Under the pieces are notes generated by a model. That model worked only from the letters and a program-made list of their open reading frames with translations. It did not search any database and was not told the origin of the DNA. The position numbers and the translations under genes were made by a program. A stretch of DNA of 32,883 nt from a virus (lineage: Duplodnaviria > Heunggongvirae > Uroviricota > Caudoviricetes). Shown in pieces: positions 1-32,791 of the stretch. Numbering within the stretch: position 1 is the stretch's first letter; every line of letters starts with the position of its first letter. The DNA is taken from the IMG/VR virus record IMGVR_UViG_2802429220_000015; one strand, written 5' to 3'.

Positions 1-648
1 TTATGCTGATTTCTTGTTTACAGGCTTAGTTTCTTGCTCCGGTGTGACGGGAACGCGATCACCTGGTGTTCCAGCACAGAAAATAGCTTTGGCGCGGCGC
101 AAAATCTCTTTGTCATTTTCCTCATCGCCAGCTAATGCCATGCAAACAGCGTCTTTAAGCGATTGCCTGATGTTCAGGCTTTGAATGGCCTTCCTTTGTT
201 CCTCAAGTTCGCTATCGGCTTGCTTGGTTTGCCTGGTGGGTTGCTGTAGGCGTTCAAGGACTCCTTTGATGCCAATACAACACAGCATATCAATAAGACG
301 CTCTCTATCTTCTGGAGTAGCTCGCCTTAGTATTTCATCGACAATACTTGTGTTTGGGCGGTTAACGTCTTCTGTAGGCACCTTTTTTTCTATTATTGGA
401 TCACGATCGCCCTCACCGTAGACCAGCCATTCCAGTGATACATTCTCTAATTTTGCTATCGTAGCGACCACATTTAGGCCGGGAGTGGTGCCTTTCTCAA
501 AGTAGTTATTTATGGTCGAGTACGGCAACCCCCAGTCTGAGGTGGCTTTACGCAGACTCCTAGTGCCAACCAGTTGCTTGATTCTGTCCTGAATGCTTTC
601 TTTTCTATTCTGAGAAAAGGAAAAATCATCGGCGGTTTGTTTACTCAC
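1..648 (-). CDS. Prophage repressor with XRE-type helix-turn-helix, in the position of the Mu c repressor
   Basis: Only leftward gene, divergent from ner-A-B. Translation has an HTH-like segment (TRSLRKATSDWGLPYSTINNYFEKG...LNVVATIAKLENVSLEWL). Track ORF runs to a TTG at 663; I place the start at the GTG at 648 because GAGGAAAG sits just upstream on the coding strand. No S24 peptidase motif seen in the C-terminal part. Confidence 0.72.
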   Translation of the reverse strand: MSKQTADDFSFSQNRKESIQDRIKQLVGTRSLRKATSDWGLPYSTINNYFEKGTTPGLNVVATIAKLENVSLEWLVYGEGDRDPIIEKKVPTEDVNRPNTSIVDEILRRATPEDRERLIDMLCCIGIKGVLERLQQPTRQTKQADSELEEQRKAIQSLNIRQSLKDAVCMALAGDEENDKEILRRAKAIFCAGTPGDRVPVTPEQETKPVNKKSA

Positions 649-663
649 TTTCTTTCCTCTCAA

Positions 664-9853: not shown

Positions 9854-9880
9854 AACCTCCGCAAACGCGGAGGTTTTTTA
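9854..9880 (+). terminator. Rho-independent terminator
   Basis: Stem AACCTCCGC / GCGGAGGTT with AAAC loop, followed by TTTTTTA. Confidence 0.8.
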
Positions 9881-9884
9881 TGAA

Positions 9885-9915
9885 CTGTACAGGCGATCAT
9901 GTATGGCTATAATAA
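9885..9915 (+). promoter_or_regulatory. Candidate promoter for the mor-like gene
   Basis: TATAAT hexamer at about 9908..9913 with no good -35; palindrome CTGTACAG at about 9885..9892. Confidence 0.4.
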
Positions 9916-9942: not shown

Positions 9943-10410
9943 ATGCAGACCTTCAGTGAAACAGATCTTCGCGATGCGCAGGTACTGCTGCCCGATTCCG
10001 TACAGCAACTGATTAGCGTGATTGGCTTCCCCGCCCTGACCCGGTTAATCCGTTCTTTTGGTGGCGTGACGTTAAGCGGTAAAACCGGCGCACACGCCGG
10101 ACGCACCGGCGGTGTCCATGCCCTGTTACATGACGTGCTGACCGAAGACGAAATCAACAAATTGATCCGCTTTCTTGGCGGTGCACCGTTTTACATTCCT
10201 CGTTGCGATCATGCGTTACGTGCCCTGCGTAACACCCGTTTTATGGCTGATTTACAGCAGCATGTAAAAGACGGATGCTCACACCGGCAGGCGCTGGCAC
10301 TACTCTGTCCCCGTTACGGGATTTCAGACCGGTACGCATGGCAACTGATACACCGACGACAAAAACAGACTTCGCTGAAAAGCCCCACCCAGGTGGGGCT
10401 TTTTGATTAA
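9943..10410 (+). CDS. mor: Mor/C-family transcription activator
   Basis: 155-aa product; segment RFLGGAPFYIPRCDHALRALRNTRFMADL aligns by eye with Mu Mor (KHLGGGQVYIPRGQALDSLIRDLRIWNDF, from memory); C-terminal HTH-like region. Confidence 0.8.
   Translation: MQTFSETDLRDAQVLLPDSVQQLISVIGFPALTRLIRSFGGVTLSGKTGAHAGRTGGVHALLHDVLTEDEINKLIRFLGGAPFYIPRCDHALRALRNTRFMADLQQHVKDGCSHRQALALLCPRYGISDRYAWQLIHRRQKQTSLKSPTQVGLFD
10379..10405 (+). terminator. Rho-independent terminator overlapping the 3' end of the mor-like gene
   Basis: Stem AGCCCCAC / GTGGGGCT with 4-nt loop, followed by TTTT. Confidence 0.7.
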
Positions 10411-10714: not shown

Positions 10715-10897
10715 TTTAGCACCCCGCCGCGGCGGGGTGCTGAACTCCCCCAGCAGTACCCACCACACCAGACCGTTTACCCTCTCCACTCAGACCACAA
10801 GGCACCTTAAGGGATAGCGCCCGGCAAAAGTCATTCTGTGCCTTTGACCGGGTGTTATTTACGGGCCGTCAGTGGCTCAGATTTACAGGAGAAACTC

Positions 10898-12361: not shown

Positions 12362-12861
12362 TGGCGTGGTCACAGGATATCAGGGACAAAGTCCGTAACG
12401 GGTACATCTTTGACCAGCTTCCGCTGGATATCGTCGCCATGAAGTACGCCGTGCCGCACGATACCGCGCGGCGCTGGAAAACGCAGGCGATGAAGAACGG
12501 TGACGACTGGGACAAGCTGCGGGCCGCTCACGCGCTCGCCGGTGACGGGCTGGAAAGTGTCGCCCGCACCGTGCTTATCAGTCTGGTGGTGAAGTGTCAG
12601 ACGACGCTTGAACGGCTGAACCAGAACCCGGACATCCCGCCGCAGGAGTCCGTCGAACTGCTGGCGAGTCTGTCTGACAGTCTCAGTAAGGCGGTGGCCA
12701 GCAGTAAAAAAATCCTGCCGGAAACCGACCGGCTCGCCACGGCACTGGAAGTGGTGCAGCGGCTCGGCGCGTTCATCAAGGAGCGTCATCCGGCACAGTA
12801 TGCCCCGTTTCTTGAGGTGCTCGAAGGCTTCGCTAAAGAGCTTGAGGATAATTTCAGTTAA
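12361..12861 (+). CDS. Terminase small subunit candidate (Mu gp27-like)
   Basis: 166-aa product; N-terminal region VRNGYIFDQLPLDIVAMKYAVPHDTARRWKTQAMKNGDDWDK fits my recollection of the gp27 family; directly upstream of the large terminase. Confidence 0.7.
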   Translation: MAWSQDIRDKVRNGYIFDQLPLDIVAMKYAVPHDTARRWKTQAMKNGDDWDKLRAAHALAGDGLESVARTVLISLVVKCQTTLERLNQNPDIPPQESVELLASLSDSLSKAVASSKKILPETDRLATALEVVQRLGAFIKERHPAQYAPFLEVLEGFAKELEDNFS

Positions 12862-12895
12862 CCACAGCGGCCCGGTTTTCCGGGCCGTCTGATAT

Positions 12896-14554
12896 TTGTA
12901 TACCAGGTGTGACGTGGCAAAACGTAAACTTTCCATTAAAGAGTTTCAGAGAAGCTTACAGGAGTACATCGCCAACCTCCGCCAGACCATTGAGGCTGAA
13001 TGTCTGGGGTTCGATGTTAACCCGCAGGCCACACAGGCCCGCCGGGCGGCAGTCTGTGACCCGGTGACGGGCTACGATTATTTTGTCGAAAACTATTTCC
13101 CGCACTACGTCCGCAACCCGGCAAAAAGCGAGCTGCATAAATACCTGTTCAGCCGTCTGCCACAGGTTGTGGCAAGCCCGGACCCGGAGAACGACGCCAT
13201 CGCCGCGCCCCGTGGTGAAGCAAAATCCACGCTGGTGACGCAGCTGTTTACCCTGTGGACCATTATCCGGGCCATTAAACATTACCCGGTCATCATTATG
13301 GACAGTATCGACCAGGCTTATCCGATGCTGGAAGCCATCAAGGCTGAACTGGAATTTAACCCCCGTTTAAAAAACGATTTCCCGGAGGTGTGCGGACAGG
13401 GGCGCGTCTGGCGTATGGGGACCATCGTCACGGCCAACAATATCAAGGTGACCGTTGCCGGTAGTGGTAAAAAACTGCGTGGTCTGCGCCACGGTCCGTA
13501 CCGTCCTGACCTGGTTATCCTCGACGACATCGAGAACGACGAGATGGTGCGTAACCCGGAGCAGCGCGACAAGCTGCATGACTGGCTCACCAAAACCGTG
13601 ATGCCGCTGGGTGAGGCTGGCGGTAAAACCGATATTATTTATATCGGGACCATCCTGCATTACGACTCCGTACTGTCGCGCACACTCAATAACCCGATGT
13701 GGAAAACAGCCCGCTTTAAGGCCGTTATTCAGTGGCCTGCCAATATGAAGCTGTGGGACGAGTGGGAAGAACTCATCCGCAACAAACAGCCGGAAGCAGC
13801 GGAGGCACTTTACCGGCAGAACGAAGCCGACATGCTCGCCGGGTCGGTGGTGTCATGGGCGGCGCGTCCCCTGCTGGCGCTGATGAAAATTCGTGTCCGT
13901 GACGGCCATGACACCTTTGATTCTGAATACCAGAACGACCCGGTCAGCGGTGAAGATGCGCTGTTTGCGGGCTGCATTCACTTCTGGGTTAACCGTCTTG
14001 ATGAATGGGTGTTCTACGGTGCGGTTGACCCCAGCCTCGGGAAGAAGAATAAAAACCGCGACCCGTCGGCCATTCTCGTGGGGGGCTTTAACCGTTTTAC
14101 CGGCATTCTGGATGTGGTTGAAGCCGATATCCGCCGACGTCTGCCGAATAAACTTATCGAAGACGTGATTAAGTATCAGCGGGAATATCACTGCCTGTGC
14201 TGGTCGTTTGAGTCCGTCCAGTTTCAGGAGTTTCTGCGTACCGTGCTGGTTGAGCGTTCGGCGGCGCTGGGGGTGCAGGTTCCGGCGCTGCCGGTCATCC
14301 CGCTGGAGGATAAGGCGCTGCGTATTGAATCCCTTCAGCCGCATATGGCCAACGGTCTGATTCGTATCAGTCACACACATCAGACACTGATTGACCAGCT
14401 GCGCCACTACCCCAAAGCCGACCACGATGATGGCCCGGACTGTCTGCACATGCTGTGGACGCTGGCGGTATCGCGCAGCGCAAAATTTCAGATACACACC
14501 CCACGCAGCAGCGGGCGTGACCGTGGCGGGCGTTTTGGTTCAGGAGGATGGTAA
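12896..14554 (+). CDS. Terminase large subunit (Mu gp28-like)
   Basis: 552-aa product with Walker A-like RGEAKST; TTG start as given by the track. Confidence 0.88.
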   Translation: MYTRCDVAKRKLSIKEFQRSLQEYIANLRQTIEAECLGFDVNPQATQARRAAVCDPVTGYDYFVENYFPHYVRNPAKSELHKYLFSRLPQVVASPDPENDAIAAPRGEAKSTLVTQLFTLWTIIRAIKHYPVIIMDSIDQAYPMLEAIKAELEFNPRLKNDFPEVCGQGRVWRMGTIVTANNIKVTVAGSGKKLRGLRHGPYRPDLVILDDIENDEMVRNPEQRDKLHDWLTKTVMPLGEAGGKTDIIYIGTILHYDSVLSRTLNNPMWKTARFKAVIQWPANMKLWDEWEELIRNKQPEAAEALYRQNEADMLAGSVVSWAARPLLALMKIRVRDGHDTFDSEYQNDPVSGEDALFAGCIHFWVNRLDEWVFYGAVDPSLGKKNKNRDPSAILVGGFNRFTGILDVVEADIRRRLPNKLIEDVIKYQREYHCLCWSFESVQFQEFLRTVLVERSAALGVQVPALPVIPLEDKALRIESLQPHMANGLIRISHTHQTLIDQLRHYPKADHDDGPDCLHMLWTLAVSRSAKFQIHTPRSSGRDRGGRFGSGGW

Positions 14555-16153: not shown

Positions 16154-17306
16154 CGATGTTGACCTGGGGTATGCGTACACACTGAAACCGGAAGAAGCGA
16201 TTAAGTATTTCGAAAGTAAGGGATACGTTATCGGCTTCCGCTGGCACGATGTGAAGGATATCGCCAACGCCCGGGCGTTCACGGTGGCTGGCGTGCTGAA
16301 ACTGGATGTGCTGAAGGATATCCGTGATGGCCTGACGGCCGCACTGGCTGACGGCGGGACGTTCCGGGAGTTTGCTGCACAACTGGAGCCACTGCTGGAG
16401 AAAAAAGGCTGGCTGGGTAAAAAACTGATTGTGGACGAGGACACCGGCGAACTGCACGGCAGACAGCTGACGCCGCGCCGGTTGCGCACGATATTTGATA
16501 CCAACATTCAGTCGTCCTACAACGCCGGACGTTATCAGCAACAGATGGCGAACGTGGCCGACCGGCCTTATTTTGAGCGCGTGGCGGTGATGGACCTTCA
16601 CACACGCCCGAAACACGCCGCCCTGAACGGCTTTACCGCCCGGGCGGATGACCCGGTCTGGGAGTATTTCTACGCCCCTGACGGGTACGGATGCCGCTGC
16701 CGTATCCGGGCGCGTTCGGCGTCTGATGTGGAGAAATATGGCCTGACGGTGCAGAGCAGCGAGGGGCGACTGGTTGAGGTTGAGCAGGAATATGGCCAGC
16801 CGGGCCTGACCATCAGAACAATGGGACTGAAGATGCCGGACGGCTCCGTGTATACCGCCGACCCGGGCTTCGGATTTAATCCCGGTCGGGTGGCATGGCA
16901 GCCGGAACTGGAGAAATATGATTACCGCAGTGCCCGCCAGTATGTCACCGGCACTCTGACCGGGCCGGATTTTGCCCGGGGACTGGCGAACGTCAGCGAA
17001 CTGGATGCGCGCCAGCGATATCCGCTGGCCATCCGTTCACCGGAACAGGTCGCCGCCACGGGCGCTGCACGGCAGACGGTAAACCTTACGGCTGACGTTA
17101 TGAAGCGCCTCAGTGCAACAGACACGCCCCCGGCCGCCGCCGACTATGTGCTGATGCAGCAGACCATCGAACGGGCGGAGCATGTCACGCAGGACGGCAA
17201 CGCGTGGCGGTATGCGTTACAGTCGGGCGACCGCTGGTCAGTGGCGACGGTTGAGGATGACGTGCTGACAGACTGGGTTATGCAGGATACCCCGGAGGCA
17301 TCATGA
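16140..17306 (+). CDS. Mu F-like head morphogenesis protein (gp30-like)
   Basis: 388-aa product; overlaps the portal stop; position and size as in Mu. Confidence 0.82.
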   Translation: MPTADDVDLGYAYTLKPEEAIKYFESKGYVIGFRWHDVKDIANARAFTVAGVLKLDVLKDIRDGLTAALADGGTFREFAAQLEPLLEKKGWLGKKLIVDEDTGELHGRQLTPRRLRTIFDTNIQSSYNAGRYQQQMANVADRPYFERVAVMDLHTRPKHAALNGFTARADDPVWEYFYAPDGYGCRCRIRARSASDVEKYGLTVQSSEGRLVEVEQEYGQPGLTIRTMGLKMPDGSVYTADPGFGFNPGRVAWQPELEKYDYRSARQYVTGTLTGPDFARGLANVSELDARQRYPLAIRSPEQVAATGAARQTVNLTADVMKRLSATDTPPAAADYVLMQQTIERAEHVTQDGNAWRYALQSGDRWSVATVEDDVLTDWVMQDTPEAS

Positions 17307-17854
17307 GCAACGGTAAACTGGATATTAAGATTGATTTAAGCGCGTATAACACCACGCTGGGGAAACTGATTCGTTCCGTGAAGGACCGGCGCGATCTGAT
17401 GACGGCACTTGCGGGTTCCATGCTGGATGCGGTTGAGACTAACTTTGAACAACAGGGGCGCCCGAAATGGATGGGCTGGAGTCCGGCTTATGCGAAACGG
17501 CGCGGCCCCGGGCAAATCCTTCAGAAATCCGGGCGACTGGCTGCCAGTATCCGCTCTGCGGTTAACAATAACGAGGCCACGGTCGGGACAAACGTCCGTT
17601 ATGCCCGTATCCACAACGAAGGCGGCGAAATCCGCCATCAGGCACGGACGCAGAACCTGTATTTTAAACAGTACAAAAACGGCAGCGTCAGCACCCGCTT
17701 TGTGAAAAAGCGCAACAGTAATTTTGTGCAGAGCGCAACGGTCGGAGCGTATACGGTCAACATGCCCGCGCGCCCCTTCCTTCAGCTTGTACAGGACGAC
17801 ATCGACGAGCTGGAGAACACCGCAAACCGCTATTTTGCGCGTGTGATTGACTGA
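17303..17854 (+). CDS. Mu G-like virion morphogenesis protein (gp31-like)
   Basis: 183-aa product; ATGA overlap with the F gene. Confidence 0.78.
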   Translation: MSNGKLDIKIDLSAYNTTLGKLIRSVKDRRDLMTALAGSMLDAVETNFEQQGRPKWMGWSPAYAKRRGPGQILQKSGRLAASIRSAVNNNEATVGTNVRYARIHNEGGEIRHQARTQNLYFKQYKNGSVSTRFVKKRNSNFVQSATVGAYTVNMPARPFLQLVQDDIDELENTANRYFARVID

Positions 17855-18054
17855 ATGACCACAAACGCGCTGTAATCGTCTGTGGCAACATAAACGCCTC
17901 ACGGATGAGGCATTACAGCACCGCACCCCGTAAATGCTGTCAGAATCGTTTTTAAAAGGGTTTTAAAAACGGTTTTATTTCCCCTTTTATCCTTTCGCGT
18001 TATGGCTGGGTGCTGAACACCCTCCACAGTACCCCGTGTTCCCCTTCCGTCATC
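17855..18054. promoter_or_regulatory. G-I intergenic control region: phased A/T tracts plus candidate late promoter; possible strong gyrase site
   Basis: 200-bp noncoding gap. T/A tracts with about 12-bp period at 17949..17990; small hairpin GCCTCA-CGGA-TGAGGC at 17896..17911; motif GTGCTGAACACCCTC at 18010..18024. In Mu the strong gyrase site and the I-gene late promoter map to the G-I interval (established knowledge; inference for this sequence). Confidence 0.5.
18010..18024 (+). promoter_or_regulatory. Repeated 15-bp motif GTGCTGAACACCCTC, copy upstream of the protease/scaffold gene
   Basis: Exact 15-mer also present at 29930..29944; ends about 30 bp before the candidate start of gene I. 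Confidence 0.5.
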
Positions 18055-19179
18055 ATGCCGCGTATGAAACTGAACATTGCGGCGTTAAGCCTCGAAATTA
18101 CTAAAGCAACCCACAGCGAAATCCAGCTGTTTCCGGCGGGCGAGTTCAGCGCGGTGGATGGTCGCCCACATACCGATGAAGTCGAAAGCGGTAAATGGGT
18201 GCTGACCGCTGAACTGGCCGCGCAGCTTGTCGCGCAGGTGGCCGCCCGTACCACGCCTTTTGTCATTGATTACGAACATCAGACGCTGCGCGCCGTAAAC
18301 AACGGCAAGCCCGCCCCGGCGGCGGGCTGGTTCAGCCAGGTGGAATGGCGAGAAGGCGCGGGCCTGTATGCCACCGGTGTGGAGTGGACGGATAACGCGG
18401 TGGCCATGATTGCCGCCGGTGAGTACAAATTTATTTCCCCTGTTTTTGCCTACAACAAGCGCGGCGAAGTGCTGGAGCTGTTACATGCTGCGCTGACCAA
18501 TACCCCGGCGCTCGACGGTATGGACGCGGTCATGCTGGCTGCGGCCAGCCGTCTGGCGAGTCTGTCAACTGAAACGGAGAACACAACGGTGGATGAAGAA
18601 CTGTTAAACGACTTGCTGTCCAGTCTGCGCTGGATGCTTAACCTCCCGGTTACCTCAACGGCGGAAGATATCAAAAACGAGCTGCAAAAGGTCGTTGACA
18701 TGATTTCGAACGGTCAGGGAACGGCGGCGGCATCCGTCAGCCTGCTGGCCCTGCTGAATCAGAAAGACGAGCAAATCGCCAGCCTGTCAGCCAGTGCCTA
18801 TGACCCGTCAAAACACATTTCCCTTGCGGCCTTTGAAGAACTTCAGGGGCGTTATGCCGCACTGGCGCAACAGTCCGGTGAGGCCGAAGCCGGGGCACTG
18901 ATTCAGGCGGCGCTGTCTGACGGGCGACTGCTTCCGGCGCAGGAAGACTGGGCGAAAGATTACGCCAGCCGCGATATCAACGGCTTTAAGTCCTGGCTGG
19001 ATAACGCACCAAAACTTGTTGCACTCAGTCAGACCCAGACCGGCGGTAAACCACCCCAAACGCCGTCGCCTGCCCCGGCGCAGATTAAAACCGGTGATGA
19101 CATCGATGTCGATATCGCCATTTGTTCAATGATGGGCGTTGATCCAGAGGATGTCGCCCGTTACGCAGGAGACAAGTAA
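18055..19179 (+). CDS. Head protease/scaffold protein (Mu I-like)
   Basis: Large ORF after G, as in Mu; start taken at the internal ATG (MPRMKLNIAAL...) because the track start lies inside the regulatory motif; 18064 is an alternative. Confidence 0.78.
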   Translation: MPRMKLNIAALSLEITKATHSEIQLFPAGEFSAVDGRPHTDEVESGKWVLTAELAAQLVAQVAARTTPFVIDYEHQTLRAVNNGKPAPAAGWFSQVEWREGAGLYATGVEWTDNAVAMIAAGEYKFISPVFAYNKRGEVLELLHAALTNTPALDGMDAVMLAAASRLASLSTETENTTVDEELLNDLLSSLRWMLNLPVTSTAEDIKNELQKVVDMISNGQGTAAASVSLLALLNQKDEQIASLSASAYDPSKHISLAAFEELQGRYAALAQQSGEAEAGALIQAALSDGRLLPAQEDWAKDYASRDINGFKSWLDNAPKLVALSQTQTGGKPPQTPSPAPAQIKTGDDIDVDIAICSMMGVDPEDVARYAGDK

Positions 19180-24342: not shown

Positions 24343-24501
24343 ATGACCATGAGCCGTCCCGAGCTGGACGGCTGGCTTGCCGCCGTTGACAGGCTGAACG
24401 GCGGCGGTTCAGGAAGAAAGGACACCTCACAGACCACCCGCCAGTCATTTAAATCCCTCAGAAAGAAACGCAGAAAAGGTAAGCAGAAAAATGGCCGGTA
24501 A
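24343..24501 (+). CDS. Small basic ORF in the -1 frame; possible frameshift extension of the chaperone
   Basis: 52-codon ORF not in the track (under 60 aa); the same reading frame is open from about 24223, overlapping the chaperone 3' end; ends inside the tape measure gene start. Confidence 0.3.
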   Translation: MTMSRPELDGWLAAVDRLNGGGSGRKDTSQTTRQSFKSLRKKRRKGKQKNGR

Positions 24502-26731
24502 TTTCAAAGTTGGCATGACCCTGACTGCGAAGGACGAAGCCTCGCAGGTTCTGGAAAAGGGACAAAAACAGGTTATCAAAGCCACCGAAGGTGTAACAAA
24601 GGCAACACGGAAGGCAGGCGCAGAGCAGAAGCGTACCGAGCAGGAAAGCATTAACAGCACGAAAAAGGCCGCAAAAGAGATACAGCGTGCCGCCCGTGCC
24701 CGGGAAACGCTCGGTATTCGTGCAGAACGTGAAATCCGGCGTGAAATTTATCAGACAGTTGCCAGCTATAACCGTCTGGCCCGCGCCGGTTTTGAATCTG
24801 CGCAGGAGCAGGAGCGCGCCATGCAGGCCGCCCGGGAAAAAGCCCGGGCACTCAAGCGTGAACTGGATGGCGTCACTCAGGCTCAGATGAAGATGGCGAA
24901 AACACCTGTTATCCCGGAGCCGGGGCGTTTTGCACGTGCGGCAGCATTTGGCGGGAATGCCGTGACAATAGGTGGTGGTATCGCGGCAGGTGCTGCCATT
25001 ATGGCGCAGCCGGTCAAAAAGCAGATGAGCTACGAACGCCAGCTGGCAATGATGGCCAATACCGCCTTCAGTGATGGCGGACTGGAGGGGCGCAAAGCCG
25101 GTCTTGAGCAGATGAAAAGCAGCATCCGTAACGCGGTGACCTATGGTGGCGGCACAAAAGAGGATGCAGCCGAAACACTGGATGCCCTGCTGAAAGATGG
25201 CGGTATTTCATTTGACACAGCCAGCAAGTGGCTGCCTGAACTGATGAAATACGCCACGGCTTCCGGTGCATCAGCGACAGACCTGGCTAATGTGATGCTT
25301 AAGGGCAAAAAGACTTTTGGATTCAGGGATGAAGATATTTCCACCGTTCTGAATATGGCAATTGCAGCGGGCAAAGAAGGCAGCTTTGAACTGAGCGACA
25401 TGGCCCGATGGTTATCTTCGCAACTGGGGTCAGCGTCAGCTGCGGGGATGAAAGGCAAAGATGATTTCGTCAAGATTCTGGCACTGAATGAAGCTGCTGC
25501 CATCACGGCGGGAAGCAGTGATGAGGCCGGAAATAACGTGTTTAACCTGCTGGCTAAACTGACCAGCCACGATATTGAAACAGCGGCAAAGAGCATTGAT
25601 TACAACGGTAAAGGAATTGATTTTTCCGGTACGCTGGTTCAGGCGCGCGAGCATGGGCTTGATCCGATAGATGCGCTGTCCAGCCTGATAGACAAAATCG
25701 TTGCCAGCGATAAACGCTTTCAGGAGTTGCAAAAGAAACTGGCCTCCGCCCGGGATAAAGGTGAGCAGACGGCTGTTTACGATTCGATGGCAAAACTCCT
25801 TGAAGGCTTTGGTGTCGGGAAACTGGTTGCAGACCAACAGGCGTTAAAAGCGTTGCTGGCTTACCGTAACAACCCTGAATACCGCAAGAAGGTTGAAGAT
25901 GCGGTTAATCAGCAGCGCACCCTGCCGGAAGGTCAGCGCGCGGGTGATGTGGATTTTAACTTCATATCCGGCCTCAATGACTTTAAAACCGAACAGGCTA
26001 AAAACACGCTTGAATTTTCACAAATGGATGGTGTGAAAAAACTGGCTGATGCATCCGGGACTGTGGCCGATGCCATAAGCTGGGCGGGTGAAAAATTTCC
26101 GGGGCTGACCACAGCAGTGGTGACAGCTACCACAGCCATTAAAGCGATGACAGCAGCGGCCGTCACGTTTGCGGGGCTGAAACTTATTACCGGTAATCCA
26201 GTGTCCGGAGGAGCAGATAAGCCCGATGATACTGGGGATACTGCATCCAAAGTTAAAGATATCAGTGAAGTCGCTTCCGGCAATCAGGGACGTCTGGGAA
26301 AAATAATGGGCGCTGCCGGAAAAATTGCAACCATTTACGCAGGCTATGAGGCCGCAGAAGAACTTTATGGGGCTGTTGTTGGCGATACCATCAAGAACTT
26401 TACAGATAATCATGGTTTGTTTTTTGCAGACGATGGCTCCTTGTTCTTTACCCGTGAAGGAATGCTTAAACGGGATAATGAGCTGAAAGCCGCAGCTGAT
26501 GCTCTGCCATCACCGGAGCAGGTGAACACAGCCGCCGGAAACACAACGCCTGAATCAGCATCAAAGCAACCCGGACGCATCACCCAGCCGGAATACCTCA
26601 CGCACTGGGGACCACCTGCCAGCCCCATTAATTTCACCACACAACTGGTGCTCGATGGTCAGGTCGTGGCGGAGGCAGTGAACAAATACAACCTTCAGGA
26701 CGGCAACAGAGGCACGGGAGGAACTTACTGA
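24491..26731 (+). CDS. Tail tape measure protein
   Basis: 746-aa Ala/Gly-rich product with long helical regions; position after the chaperone. Confidence 0.9.
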   Translation: MAGNFKVGMTLTAKDEASQVLEKGQKQVIKATEGVTKATRKAGAEQKRTEQESINSTKKAAKEIQRAARARETLGIRAEREIRREIYQTVASYNRLARAGFESAQEQERAMQAAREKARALKRELDGVTQAQMKMAKTPVIPEPGRFARAAAFGGNAVTIGGGIAAGAAIMAQPVKKQMSYERQLAMMANTAFSDGGLEGRKAGLEQMKSSIRNAVTYGGGTKEDAAETLDALLKDGGISFDTASKWLPELMKYATASGASATDLANVMLKGKKTFGFRDEDISTVLNMAIAAGKEGSFELSDMARWLSSQLGSASAAGMKGKDDFVKILALNEAAAITAGSSDEAGNNVFNLLAKLTSHDIETAAKSIDYNGKGIDFSGTLVQAREHGLDPIDALSSLIDKIVASDKRFQELQKKLASARDKGEQTAVYDSMAKLLEGFGVGKLVADQQALKALLAYRNNPEYRKKVEDAVNQQRTLPEGQRAGDVDFNFISGLNDFKTEQAKNTLEFSQMDGVKKLADASGTVADAISWAGEKFPGLTTAVVTATTAIKAMTAAAVTFAGLKLITGNPVSGGADKPDDTGDTASKVKDISEVASGNQGRLGKIMGAAGKIATIYAGYEAAEELYGAVVGDTIKNFTDNHGLFFADDGSLFFTREGMLKRDNELKAAADALPSPEQVNTAAGNTTPESASKQPGRITQPEYLTHWGPPASPINFTTQLVLDGQVVAEAVNKYNLQDGNRGTGGTY

Positions 26732-29928: not shown

Positions 29929-29929
29929 G

Positions 29930-29944
29930 TGCTGAACACCCTCA
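29930..29944 (+). promoter_or_regulatory. Repeated 15-bp motif GTGCTGAACACCCTC, copy upstream of the gp46-like gene
   Basis: Exact copy of 18010..18024, in the 53-bp gap between the gp45-like and gp46-like genes, 37 bp before the ATG. Confidence 0.5.
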
Positions 29945-29981
29945 CCTGATTCTGACCTGTCCATGCTGCCAGACTGGCGGC

Positions 29982-31988: not shown

Positions 31989-32791
31989 TGCAGAATTTAA
32001 TGCCCCCGGTGAATACGCCGGATAAGTTATTTCATGATGGTGACCCGACTCAGGGAATTGAGGGAACCATCGTTACTGCTGAATTTATGAATAATCATCA
32101 GGCAGCAACGCGTGATTTGCAGCAGGAGGTGATTAACGTCCTTAAAGAGGCTGGCGTCACCCCTGACCCGGAAAAACAAAACCAGCTGGTTGAGGCGCTG
32201 ACCTCGTTTATTGGTCAGAAAGTCCCGGATGCATCACTGACGCAAAAAGGCGTGGTGCAGCTTAACAGTGCTGTTAACAGTGAATCAGAAACAGAAGCTG
32301 CCACACCAAAAGCGGTCAAAATTGCGATAGATAACGCAAACGCCAGACTGGCAAAAGACCGTAACGGCGCAGACATCCCGAATAAACAGTTGTTTCTGGA
32401 TAACATCAGCGGTGTGCCAAAAGCACGCAAGGTCAACGGTATGGCCCTGACTTCGGATATCACCATCAGCAGCATCAGCGGCAACGCCGGAACAGCAACC
32501 CGCCTTCAGAACGCCCGCAGAATCAACAATGTGCTGTTTGATGGCTCCAGCGATATCACAATCACCAGTACCGATTCTGGTGCTGTGCGTAATTTCCAGT
32601 ATACCAACGAGGTGTTTCATAATCCCGGCGGTACTGAAATTACATGGACATTCCGGGCACCTTCCGGCTGTCAGTTGTCAGGCATTTATGTCCAGGAAAC
32701 GGGAGATAATACAGCAGACAATATCGGTGGTGTGTATTACAAATCCGCGCAGATTTATATCAATGGCTCATGGCGCACCGTATCCGGTTAA
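31988..32791 (+). CDS. Tail fibre protein (short)
   Basis: 267-aa product; N-terminal region with KGVVQLNSAVNSESETEAATPKAVKIAIDNAN, a motif I recognise from phage tail fibre N-terminal domains. Confidence 0.75.
   Translation: MQNLMPPVNTPDKLFHDGDPTQGIEGTIVTAEFMNNHQAATRDLQQEVINVLKEAGVTPDPEKQNQLVEALTSFIGQKVPDASLTQKGVVQLNSAVNSESETEAATPKAVKIAIDNANARLAKDRNGADIPNKQLFLDNISGVPKARKVNGMALTSDITISSISGNAGTATRLQNARRINNVLFDGSSDITITSTDSGAVRNFQYTNEVFHNPGGTEITWTFRAPSGCQLSGIYVQETGDNTADNIGGVYYKSAQIYINGSWRTVSG

Follow-up and report, generated by a model that had tools for sequence, protein, structure and literature searches.

The G–I intergenic region of an Escherichia coli Mu-like prophage as a probable counterpart of the Mu strong gyrase site joined to a late promoter

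Introduction

The closest described system is bacteriophage Mu, in which a strong gyrase site (SGS) lies between genes G and I and the lys and I regions give separate late transcripts. A Mor/C-dependent late promoter has a box centred near -43, a poor -35 and a TAnnnT-like -10. Oram & Pato reportedly tested, in 2004, central sites from O157:H7 Sakai Sp18, N. meningitidis, H. influenzae and S. Typhi; the Haemophilus and S. Typhi sites are said to be cleaved by gyrase yet not to support Mu replication, so that a tract array need not amount to a functional SGS, and only the Sakai site is said to have replaced the Mu SGS well, so that function is not to be assumed from position. A site of the Sp18-type prophage has also been described in a published report as able to substitute for the Mu SGS (PMC10052514).

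In the Higgins-lab description of the Mu SGS, the DNA bends at +7G+8C and -8G-7C, which places the cleavage centre between Mu positions 17877 and 17878; the left arm, from -65 to -26, can be dispensed with, and the gate segment, from -25 to +25, is critical. In the right arm, protection extends over +26 to +85, and the first 40 nt, with phased bending signals, are essential (PMC6463007). In the cryo-EM structure of gyrase on the Mu SGS, the minor groove of the right-arm A/T repeats is turned toward the GyrA C-terminal domain (PMC11626157), and the gyrase consensus has A/T maxima at about +19, +29.5, +38.5, +49.5 and +61 from the centre (PMC6379681). The Mu record AF083977 places the gyrase cut at 17879^17880, has a terminator predicted at 17908-17953 and gives 17977-18043 as the late promoter PI; the four late promoters of Mu (Plys, PI, PP and Pmom) share ccATAAcCCC (Margolin et al. 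1989, annotated in AF083977). Please note that the "gyrase cut site 17879..17880" of this record is the cut of one strand, the centre of the 4-bp stagger being 17877/17878, on which the published numbering and the Topo-Seq fragment agree. In one core base, the 133-nt "Mu SGS" fragment given in the Topo-Seq supplement departs from GenBank (GGGT against GGCT).

Here, we report on the G–I gap of a stretch of viral DNA of 32,883 nucleotides (IMG/VR record IMGVR_UViG_2802429220_000015), the whole of which we call the window. An earlier note on this DNA had proposed that the gap plays the roles of strong gyrase site and late promoter, as the same interval does in Mu. Judging from sequence comparison, we consider it probable that the gap is a two-module control region, i.e., a counterpart of the Mu SGS followed by the late promoter of the I-T operon.

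Results

The window is an E. coli Mu-like prophage

The prophage in the window is present in 55 of 5,426 complete genomes, including EPEC E2348/69, and no O157:H7 genome is among these 55. Pfam and PHROG scans recovered the Mu gene order, i.e., A, B, GemA, a Mor-family gene, lysis, terminase, portal, F, G, I and T, with tail and baseplate genes completing the Mu-type set. By blastn, identity between the window DNA and Mu was undetectable, the window lineage being distinct from Mu, and the G–I gap, searched against Mu and phage records, gave 0 matches to Mu.

In E. coli 08-00022, the prophage copy interrupts a gene and is flanked by a CAAGT target duplication. By this copy, window position 1 lies 312 bp inside the left prophage end, and the right prophage end lies 3,541 bp past window position 32791. 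On the assumption that the right end of the window prophage is the same as in 08-00022, the prophage would be about 36,644 bp long without the IS66 and methylase insertions of 08-00022, and its calculated midpoint would fall near window position 18010, with the tracts described below at 17949-17990. By this calculation, the gap sits where the SGS of Mu sits, between G and I at the centre of the phage; in Mu, the Klebsiella phage, SuMu and the Mannheimia phage, the tract arrays are found at 0.487-0.515 of genome length.

Apart from a gene for a DNA methyltransferase, placed between the DUF1804 gene and terL, and IS66/IS21/IS1 insertions, one of them within the tape-measure gene, the copies in 08-00022 and RM9088 are identical to the window. 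The window has neither the methyltransferase gene nor these IS insertions (window 12861-12896 and 24491-26731 compared). In 08-00022, the prophage is nested inside another prophage.

Borders and contents of the G–I gap

The noncoding gap that the earlier note had described between G and I is real and runs from 17855 to 18054 or 18063, G ending at 17854 and I starting at ATG 18055 or, more likely, at ATG 18064, which is the PGAP start in identical copies and fits the N-termini of the Mu and Klebsiella phage I proteins in an alignment. A small-ORF check found no credible ORF in the gap, no Rfam family was found in it, and neither ATG is preceded by a Shine-Dalgarno sequence. A sigma-70 promoter scan of the gap found no promoter, as expected for an activator-dependent one. 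The coordinates are collected in Table 1.

Table 1. Coordinates of the G–I gap features and of the late-gene elements in the window
Feature	Position	Strand	Basis or remark
Repressor	1-663	-	Pfam/PHROG scans
Mor/C-family activator gene, the window's only one, presumed reader of the three boxes	9943..10410	+	PF08765 (E = 1.9e-06); phrog_836 "late transcriptional activator" (E = 4.4e-42)
Late box copy 2, upstream of holin/endolysin genes	10737..10751	+	exact motif copy
Gene G (virion morphogenesis)	17303..17854	+	PF05069, E = 2.3e-26; stop is the left border of the gap
Predicted gyrase gate (G) segment	17889..17938	.	predicted solely by applying the Mu offset (first TpA of pair = +40)
Small hairpin GCCTCA-cgga-TGAGGC	17896..17911	+	fold -9.3 kcal/mol, z = -1.9
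Phased A/T signals, predicted SGS right arm	17931..17990	.	tracts, alignment, conservation
Six A/T signals	TAAAT 17931-35, AAT 17943-45, T5A4 17949-57, T4A5 17961-69, TTTTATTT 17973-80, TTTTAT 17985-90		
Late-promoter activator box GTGCTGAACACCCTC, predicted counterpart of the Mu C-box	18010..18024	+	recurrence, alignment
Candidate -10 CATCAT	18051..18056	+	41 nt past box start; read from sequence
Gene I (head protease/scaffold)	18064..19179	+	PF10123, E = 1.3e-98; probable start ATG 18064
Late box copy 3, in the gap upstream of the baseplate gene starting 29982	29929..29943	+	exact motif copy

The small hairpin that had been noticed after G is present and folds as listed in Table 1. It is followed by the tail ATTACAGC with no T-run, the terminator scan makes no call on it, and it falls short of an intrinsic terminator. 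The stem is kept in the 9 E. coli variants, one C->T change giving a G.U pair. Relatives have canonical terminators (A-run/stem/T-run) at the same post-G position, so the hairpin is probably a degenerate terminator, or else a 3'-end stabiliser, outside both modules.

Phased T(n)A(n) tracts

The T/A tracts at about 12-bp intervals across 17949..17990, as first noticed, are borne out, with starts exactly 12 bp apart at 17949 (TTTTTAAAA), 17961 (TTTTAAAAA), 17973 (TTTTATTT) and 17985 (TTTTAT) and with TpA steps at 17953/54, 17964/65, 17976/77 and 17988/89, i.e., at intervals of 11, 12 and 12 bp. With TAAAT and AAT on the left added (Table 1), the mean period over the six A/T signals is about 11 bp. 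The motif TTTTAAAA occurs twice in 32.9 kb against 0.47 expected, both times in the array, so that the two T4-5A4-5 tracts are its only copies in the window; two copies were reached by 5 of 100 shuffles. In a plain A/T periodogram, the tract stretch is within the top ~0.1% of window positions and is not uniquely first; the phasing alone is therefore notable, not decisive, and the case rests on the comparison with other phages.

A DNA curvature prediction had been suggested as a check, and its outcome is an array of the T(n)A(n) type that is predicted to be flexible and without static curvature. The wedge model, run with parameters that reproduce A4T4 repeats as curved and T4A4 repeats as straight, gave 6-21 degrees per 31 bp over the array vs a window mean of 15.5, and curved DNA is ruled out by this low predicted static curvature. 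By this model, the tracts are predicted to be flexible signals centred on TpA, which fits the "anisotropic bending signals" of Mu, and in this the array has what the right arm of an SGS has, i.e., phased bending signals, here of the flexible T(n)A(n) type.

Comparison with the Mu SGS

In an unguided MAFFT alignment, window 17945-17971 was aligned with Mu GGATTTTTAAACCGGTATTTAACGG, and the counterpart of the array in Mu is 17912-17931, i.e., the tracts at +32 to +51 from the cleavage centre. Since these positions are within +26 to +65, which is reported essential, the tract homology concerns the functional arm. MAFFT found no similarity to the Mu SGS core outside the tracts. Of the alignment to the Mu site that the earlier note had proposed, the right-arm part stands, and the cleavage core shows no detectable similarity.

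If the Mu offset of Table 1 is applied, the cleavage centre would lie near 17913/17914, to within one helical turn; 17902 and 17893 would be equally in phase. At this offset, the signals of the window are close to the consensus gyrase A/T maxima. We also used an S/W template, a crude proxy made from the published 133-nt gyrase consensus that stands in for the Topo-Seq weight matrix. Its best window match is at 17893 (z = 4.45, rank 1), whereas the true Mu SGS ranks only 12th of ~73,000 Mu positions by the same template, and, as the signal comes mostly from the tract pair itself, the template cannot place the cut site.

One observation counts against the gyrase reading. Among the E. coli copies, 12 of the ~50 predicted gate positions vary, which makes this the most variable part of the gap, and the gate segment of Mu is the one described as critical. 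The combination of a conserved right side and a free left side mirrors Mu genetics.

The tract pair in relatives and among E. coli copies

A scan by I-protein alignment, with one genome per species, gave 80 loci, in 51 of which both G and I could be placed; with the window, Mu and the Klebsiella phage, these make 54 sources. The G–I gap is ~190-340 bp in about 40 of the 54 and 0.5-1.4 kb in the rest. A T(n)A(n) pair with its TpA steps exactly 11 bp apart is found 40-150 bp past the G stop in 34 of the 51 distant Mu-like loci, from Enterobacterales, Burkholderiales, Neisseriales and others. Its density is 7.07/kb at the post-G position vs 0.02/kb elsewhere in the same loci, a ~350-fold enrichment. 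When pair spacings of 8 to 15 bp were scanned, only 11 came up, plus a single 13, and the exact spacing is kept in 37 of the 39 pairs detected across the 54 sources. The flanking G/C positions are conserved as well (cg..TTTAAA.gGGg.TTTAAA..CG), and the G/C spacer is GGGG in enterics or CCCCC in Burkholderia, i.e., it occurs in both orientations, which suits a structural signal. The Pasteurellaceae phages have four tracts with spacings of 10, 11 and 10 bp, three phased tracts (TTTTCTAA/TATTTAA/TTTAAAA) are seen in the O157:H7 Mu-like prophage examined, which is presumably of the Sp18 type, and Pseudomonas phage Ab30 has no T(n)A(n) pair. We found no description of this family-wide 11-bp pair in the literature searched, and it is the one point here that is mildly new.

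Where the gap of a relative holds an insert of 0.5-1.4 kb, the pair still adjoins G and the box still adjoins I; because the two keep to different neighbours, we take the gap to consist of two independent modules, the tracts not being a promoter element. In the alignment of the 9 E. coli variants, variable columns number 22 of 86 in 17855-17940 vs 2 of 55 in 17941-17995, so that the tract region is ~7-fold less variable than the left half of the gap; 1 of 15 columns varies in the box and 2 of 39 between box and ATG.

The A/T profile left of the pair across the relatives beats 2000 of 2000 register-scrambled nulls, with a period of 9.5 bp. We discount this profile as gyrase evidence: it comes largely from the conserved post-G terminator, and its period is the 9.5 bp just given.

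Alternative readings of the tracts

The array may be read as mainly an intrinsic terminator of the upstream late (lysis-head) transcript, the RNA of 17942-17976 forming an A/U-rich hairpin with a U-rich tail. A transcript end is expected between G and I from the separate lys and I late transcripts of Mu, the RNA of 17940-17995 folds into a 16-bp stem (-12.3 kcal/mol, z = -2.2) that is followed by AUUUCCCCUUUUAU, the other hairpin of the gap has no T-run, and the TransTermHP terminator in the Mu record overlaps the right arm. We nevertheless hold this reading to be rather unlikely. The stem has only about 2-3 G-C pairs, and the terminator scan makes no call; in Burkholderiales and Neisseriales, the pair (ccgTTAAAcccccgTTAAAAtc) can form no meaningful hairpin, and in most relatives the pair is closely preceded by a terminator of the canonical, G/C-rich kind, so that what is conserved is the two spaced TTTAAA tracts and no hairpin. 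In the window phage, the tracts may act secondarily as a terminator.

The near-exact spacing (37 of 39 pairs) and the conserved flanking G/C look more like a protein site than like generic bendability, and IHF, Fis, HU and MuB are likewise needed for the Mu prophage domain (PMC3820752). The tracts could accordingly be a site for a protein other than gyrase, a nucleoid protein or a phage factor that bends or marks the prophage centre. To this we give a low probability, since the homologous tracts of Mu lie within the gyrase-protected, functionally essential right arm, and hosts across several proteobacterial orders favor a universal partner such as gyrase. The spacer, moreover, is found in either orientation, the spacing ranges over 10-12 bp in Mu, the Sp18-type prophage and the Pasteurellaceae phages, and by inspection the tracts match neither Fis (A-then-T polarity) nor the IHF consensus.

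As the array is 20-60 bp upstream of the box, and A/T-rich upstream DNA often boosts transcription, an UP-like or curved-DNA element of the I late promoter might also be considered; this is very improbable and already largely refuted, given that in relatives whose gap holds 0.5-1.4 kb inserts the pair adjoins G, at a long distance from the I promoter, that the lysis and baseplate promoter copies have no such tracts, and that the wedge model gives the array no static curvature. Least credible of all is functionless, A/T-rich intergenic sequence arisen by chance, a reading that the general A/T-richness of intergenic DNA and the not uniquely highest periodogram would allow, but that is refuted by sequence conservation, i.e., the 350-fold positional enrichment in distant relatives, the near-invariance among E. 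coli copies and the register-scramble test (0 of 2000).

The reading we prefer for the tracts is the right arm of a gyrase site. The strong gyrase site role put forward in the earlier note gains support from the calculated central position of the gap, the alignment of the tracts with the Mu right arm, the pair fixed after G in distant prophages and its conservation in the E. coli copies, all of them comparisons between sequences.

Late promoter box and its activator

The motif claimed at 18010..18024 is present as GTGCTGAACACCCTC. We counted three copies of GTGCTGAACNCCC in the window (10737, 18010 and 29929) vs 0 expected, always on the + strand and in gaps before late operons; the box can be written GTGCTGAAC[A/T]CCC, with exactly three occurrences, and the whole prophage copy has three GTGCTGAACNCCC only. 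MAFFT aligned the window box with Mu GCATAACCCCAG, the PI box. The box is not identical to the Mu C-box ccATAAcCCC; it is a related, distinct sequence. The box keeps its distance from I in relatives, where 50-52 nt lie between the start of its CTGAA and the I ATG, even in a 1.4 kb gap. The recurrence before the lysis and baseplate operons and the alignment with the Mu C-box argue for the late promoter role that had been suggested for this region, and the I promoter would work like a Mu late promoter with a regulon sequence of its own.

A hexamer of the form -A---T begins 41 nt after each box start, i.e., TACCCT at 10778, CATCAT at 18051 and CAGACT at 29970, and its I and baseplate copies end 7 nt upstream of the ATG. 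If CATCAT, a candidate -10, is the one used, transcription would start at ~18063-64, the box would span about -53 to -39 and the I mRNA would have no leader or almost none; this register would give a Mu-like geometry. Alternatively, TACCCC at 18030-35, directly downstream of the box, may be the -10, which would put the box at about -32 to -18 and leave a short leader.

The product of the activator gene in Table 1 resembles Mu C and Mu Mor only weakly. As the window has a single gene of the Mor/C family, a two-step cascade is suggested rather than the three-step one of Mu (Mor then C).

Some further elements were seen around these genes. A near-consensus sigma-70 promoter, TGTACA-16-TATAAT, precedes the activator gene at 9886-9913, and before it is also a strong hairpin (9854-9875) with T/A runs on both sides, for which a terminator was called on the - strand only. 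The late box of the lysis operon shares its first bases with a G/C-rich hairpin, caCCCCGCCgcgGCGGGGtg, at 10720-10739, which may be a terminator or an insulator right against the promoter.

Hairpins directly before start codons

A stem of 7-8 bp with a 3-nt loop that ends on the base directly before the start codon was seen in the window at 29962-29981 (GCTGCCAgacTGGCGGC-ATG), and a stem of this kind is also in the 20 nt before the I ATG of relatives. We counted perfect stems of at least 6 bp directly before the ATG in 44 diverse sequences, i.e., 43 taken upstream of the I ATG of relatives plus the 29962-29981 copy of the window; 26 of the 44 have one, against a mean of 2.0 and a maximum of 7 in the shuffled control. 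The stems differ in sequence yet stay complementary (GCCCCGCA/TGCGGGGC, GGTTGCCA/TGGCAACC, GTCGCACA/TGTGCGAC). No Shine-Dalgarno sequence was found at these sites, and the I gene of the window itself has no such stem. The stem may act in RNA, as a hairpin at the 5' end abutting the AUG, or in DNA, as a hairpin that spans the -10/discriminator of a leaderless promoter.

Insertions in the G–I gap

The gap is also an insertion hot spot. In 14 of the 54 sources, unrelated ORFs of 100-400 aa lie between the pair and the I box. A Pfam scan of genes inserted in the gaps of relatives left 9 of 10 without a family, the one exception being DUF1828. Pseudomonas phage Ab30 carries two anti-CRISPR genes and aca1 in the same slot. 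In a published remark, gap insertions are connected with illegitimate recombination that gyrase would mediate where the SGS is expected (PMC8705779). In the prophage of O157:H7 NE 1092-2, a "tRNA-OTHER" is annotated at 1256-1335 of the locus, between F and G and on the opposite strand.

Discussion

We picture the two modules as follows. Module 1 (~17850-18000) would be the counterpart of the Mu SGS. The gate segment bound by the host DNA gyrase would be at about 17890-17940, and the DNA right of the gate would wrap the GyrA C-terminal domain, with T(n)A(n)/TpA signals every ~11 bp, G/C runs between them and the A/T minor grooves toward the protein. The wrapped right arm would then be presented as the transfer segment, and processive supercoiling from the prophage middle would help to pair both ends for replicative transposition. 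The sequences themselves show where the gap lies, what it is made of, how it is conserved and where its box recurs; gyrase binding, cleavage and a role in synapsis at the gap we infer. Module 2 (18010-18063) would be the late promoter of the I-T head operon. The -35 of this promoter would be weak, and the Mor/C-family activator (9943-10410), bound to GTGCTGAACACCCTC, would bring RNA polymerase to it; the activator binding to the box and the exact transcript start are likewise predictions.

A Mu-like centre is what is expected for this prophage, a relative of Mu. The wider value is the comparative signature: a fixed-position, 11-bp-spaced T(n)A(n) pair is concrete and mutable and can be tested in many hosts. 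The pair site also marks a place of accessory-gene insertion, including anti-CRISPR loci in Pseudomonas phages, and the three-box late regulon is a simple handle for late-transcription mapping in an E. coli prophage family that includes EPEC E2348/69.

We also entertain a bolder idea, which we regard as unlikely, that the 11-bp TTTAAA-G/C-TTTAAA pair, ~70-100 bp past G, is a dedicated, sequence-defined "genome-centre" element that goes beyond gyrase-friendly bendable DNA. If true, such an element might be read by a partner other than gyrase, or might set the register and orientation of gyrase so precisely that it chooses the transfer-segment arm; it might also make the spot a hot spot for accessory or anti-defence genes.

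Compared with the Mu SGS, the window site shares the gene interval, the central position, and an order of parts in which a variable left side is followed by T(n)A(n) tracts on the right and then by a late promoter. The TpA signals of Mu are at +19, +40, +52 and +74, and with the offset of Mu the A/T signals of the window are at about +18, +31, +40, +51, +63 and +75, i.e., six signals against four, and a spacing of 11-12 bp vs 21/12/22 bp in Mu. The TpA steps of the tract pair itself are 12 bp apart in Mu vs 11 bp in the relatives. To the central sites reportedly tested by Oram & Pato in 2004, the likeness is that of a central, G-I-type intergenic site of a Mu-like prophage, while the window prophage belongs to another lineage.

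The 130-bp Topo-Seq motif (Sutormin et al. 2019, PMC6379681) has A/T with the minor groove in and G/C with it out, at ~10.75 bp, on the flanks of a central segment. Its consensus right arm, ...cccTTTgggggccTTTAAgggggccTTTT, resembles window cgTTTTTAAAAgggTTTTAAAAAcggTTTTATTT; the window differs in its period of ~11-12 bp and in a central part without a match, as scored by the crude S/W proxy.

With the late promoters of Mu, the window shares an activator of the Mor/C family and a box before each of three late operons (lysis, I and baseplate), and its box, gCTGAACaCCC, resembles ccATAAcCCC. An -A---T hexamer lies downstream of the box in the window too, and the -35 is predicted to be weak or absent. 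The window has three such predicted promoters vs four in Mu and a single activator vs the Mor-then-C cascade; the distance from box to ATG is 50 nt, without a Shine-Dalgarno sequence, vs 62-66 nt in Mu.
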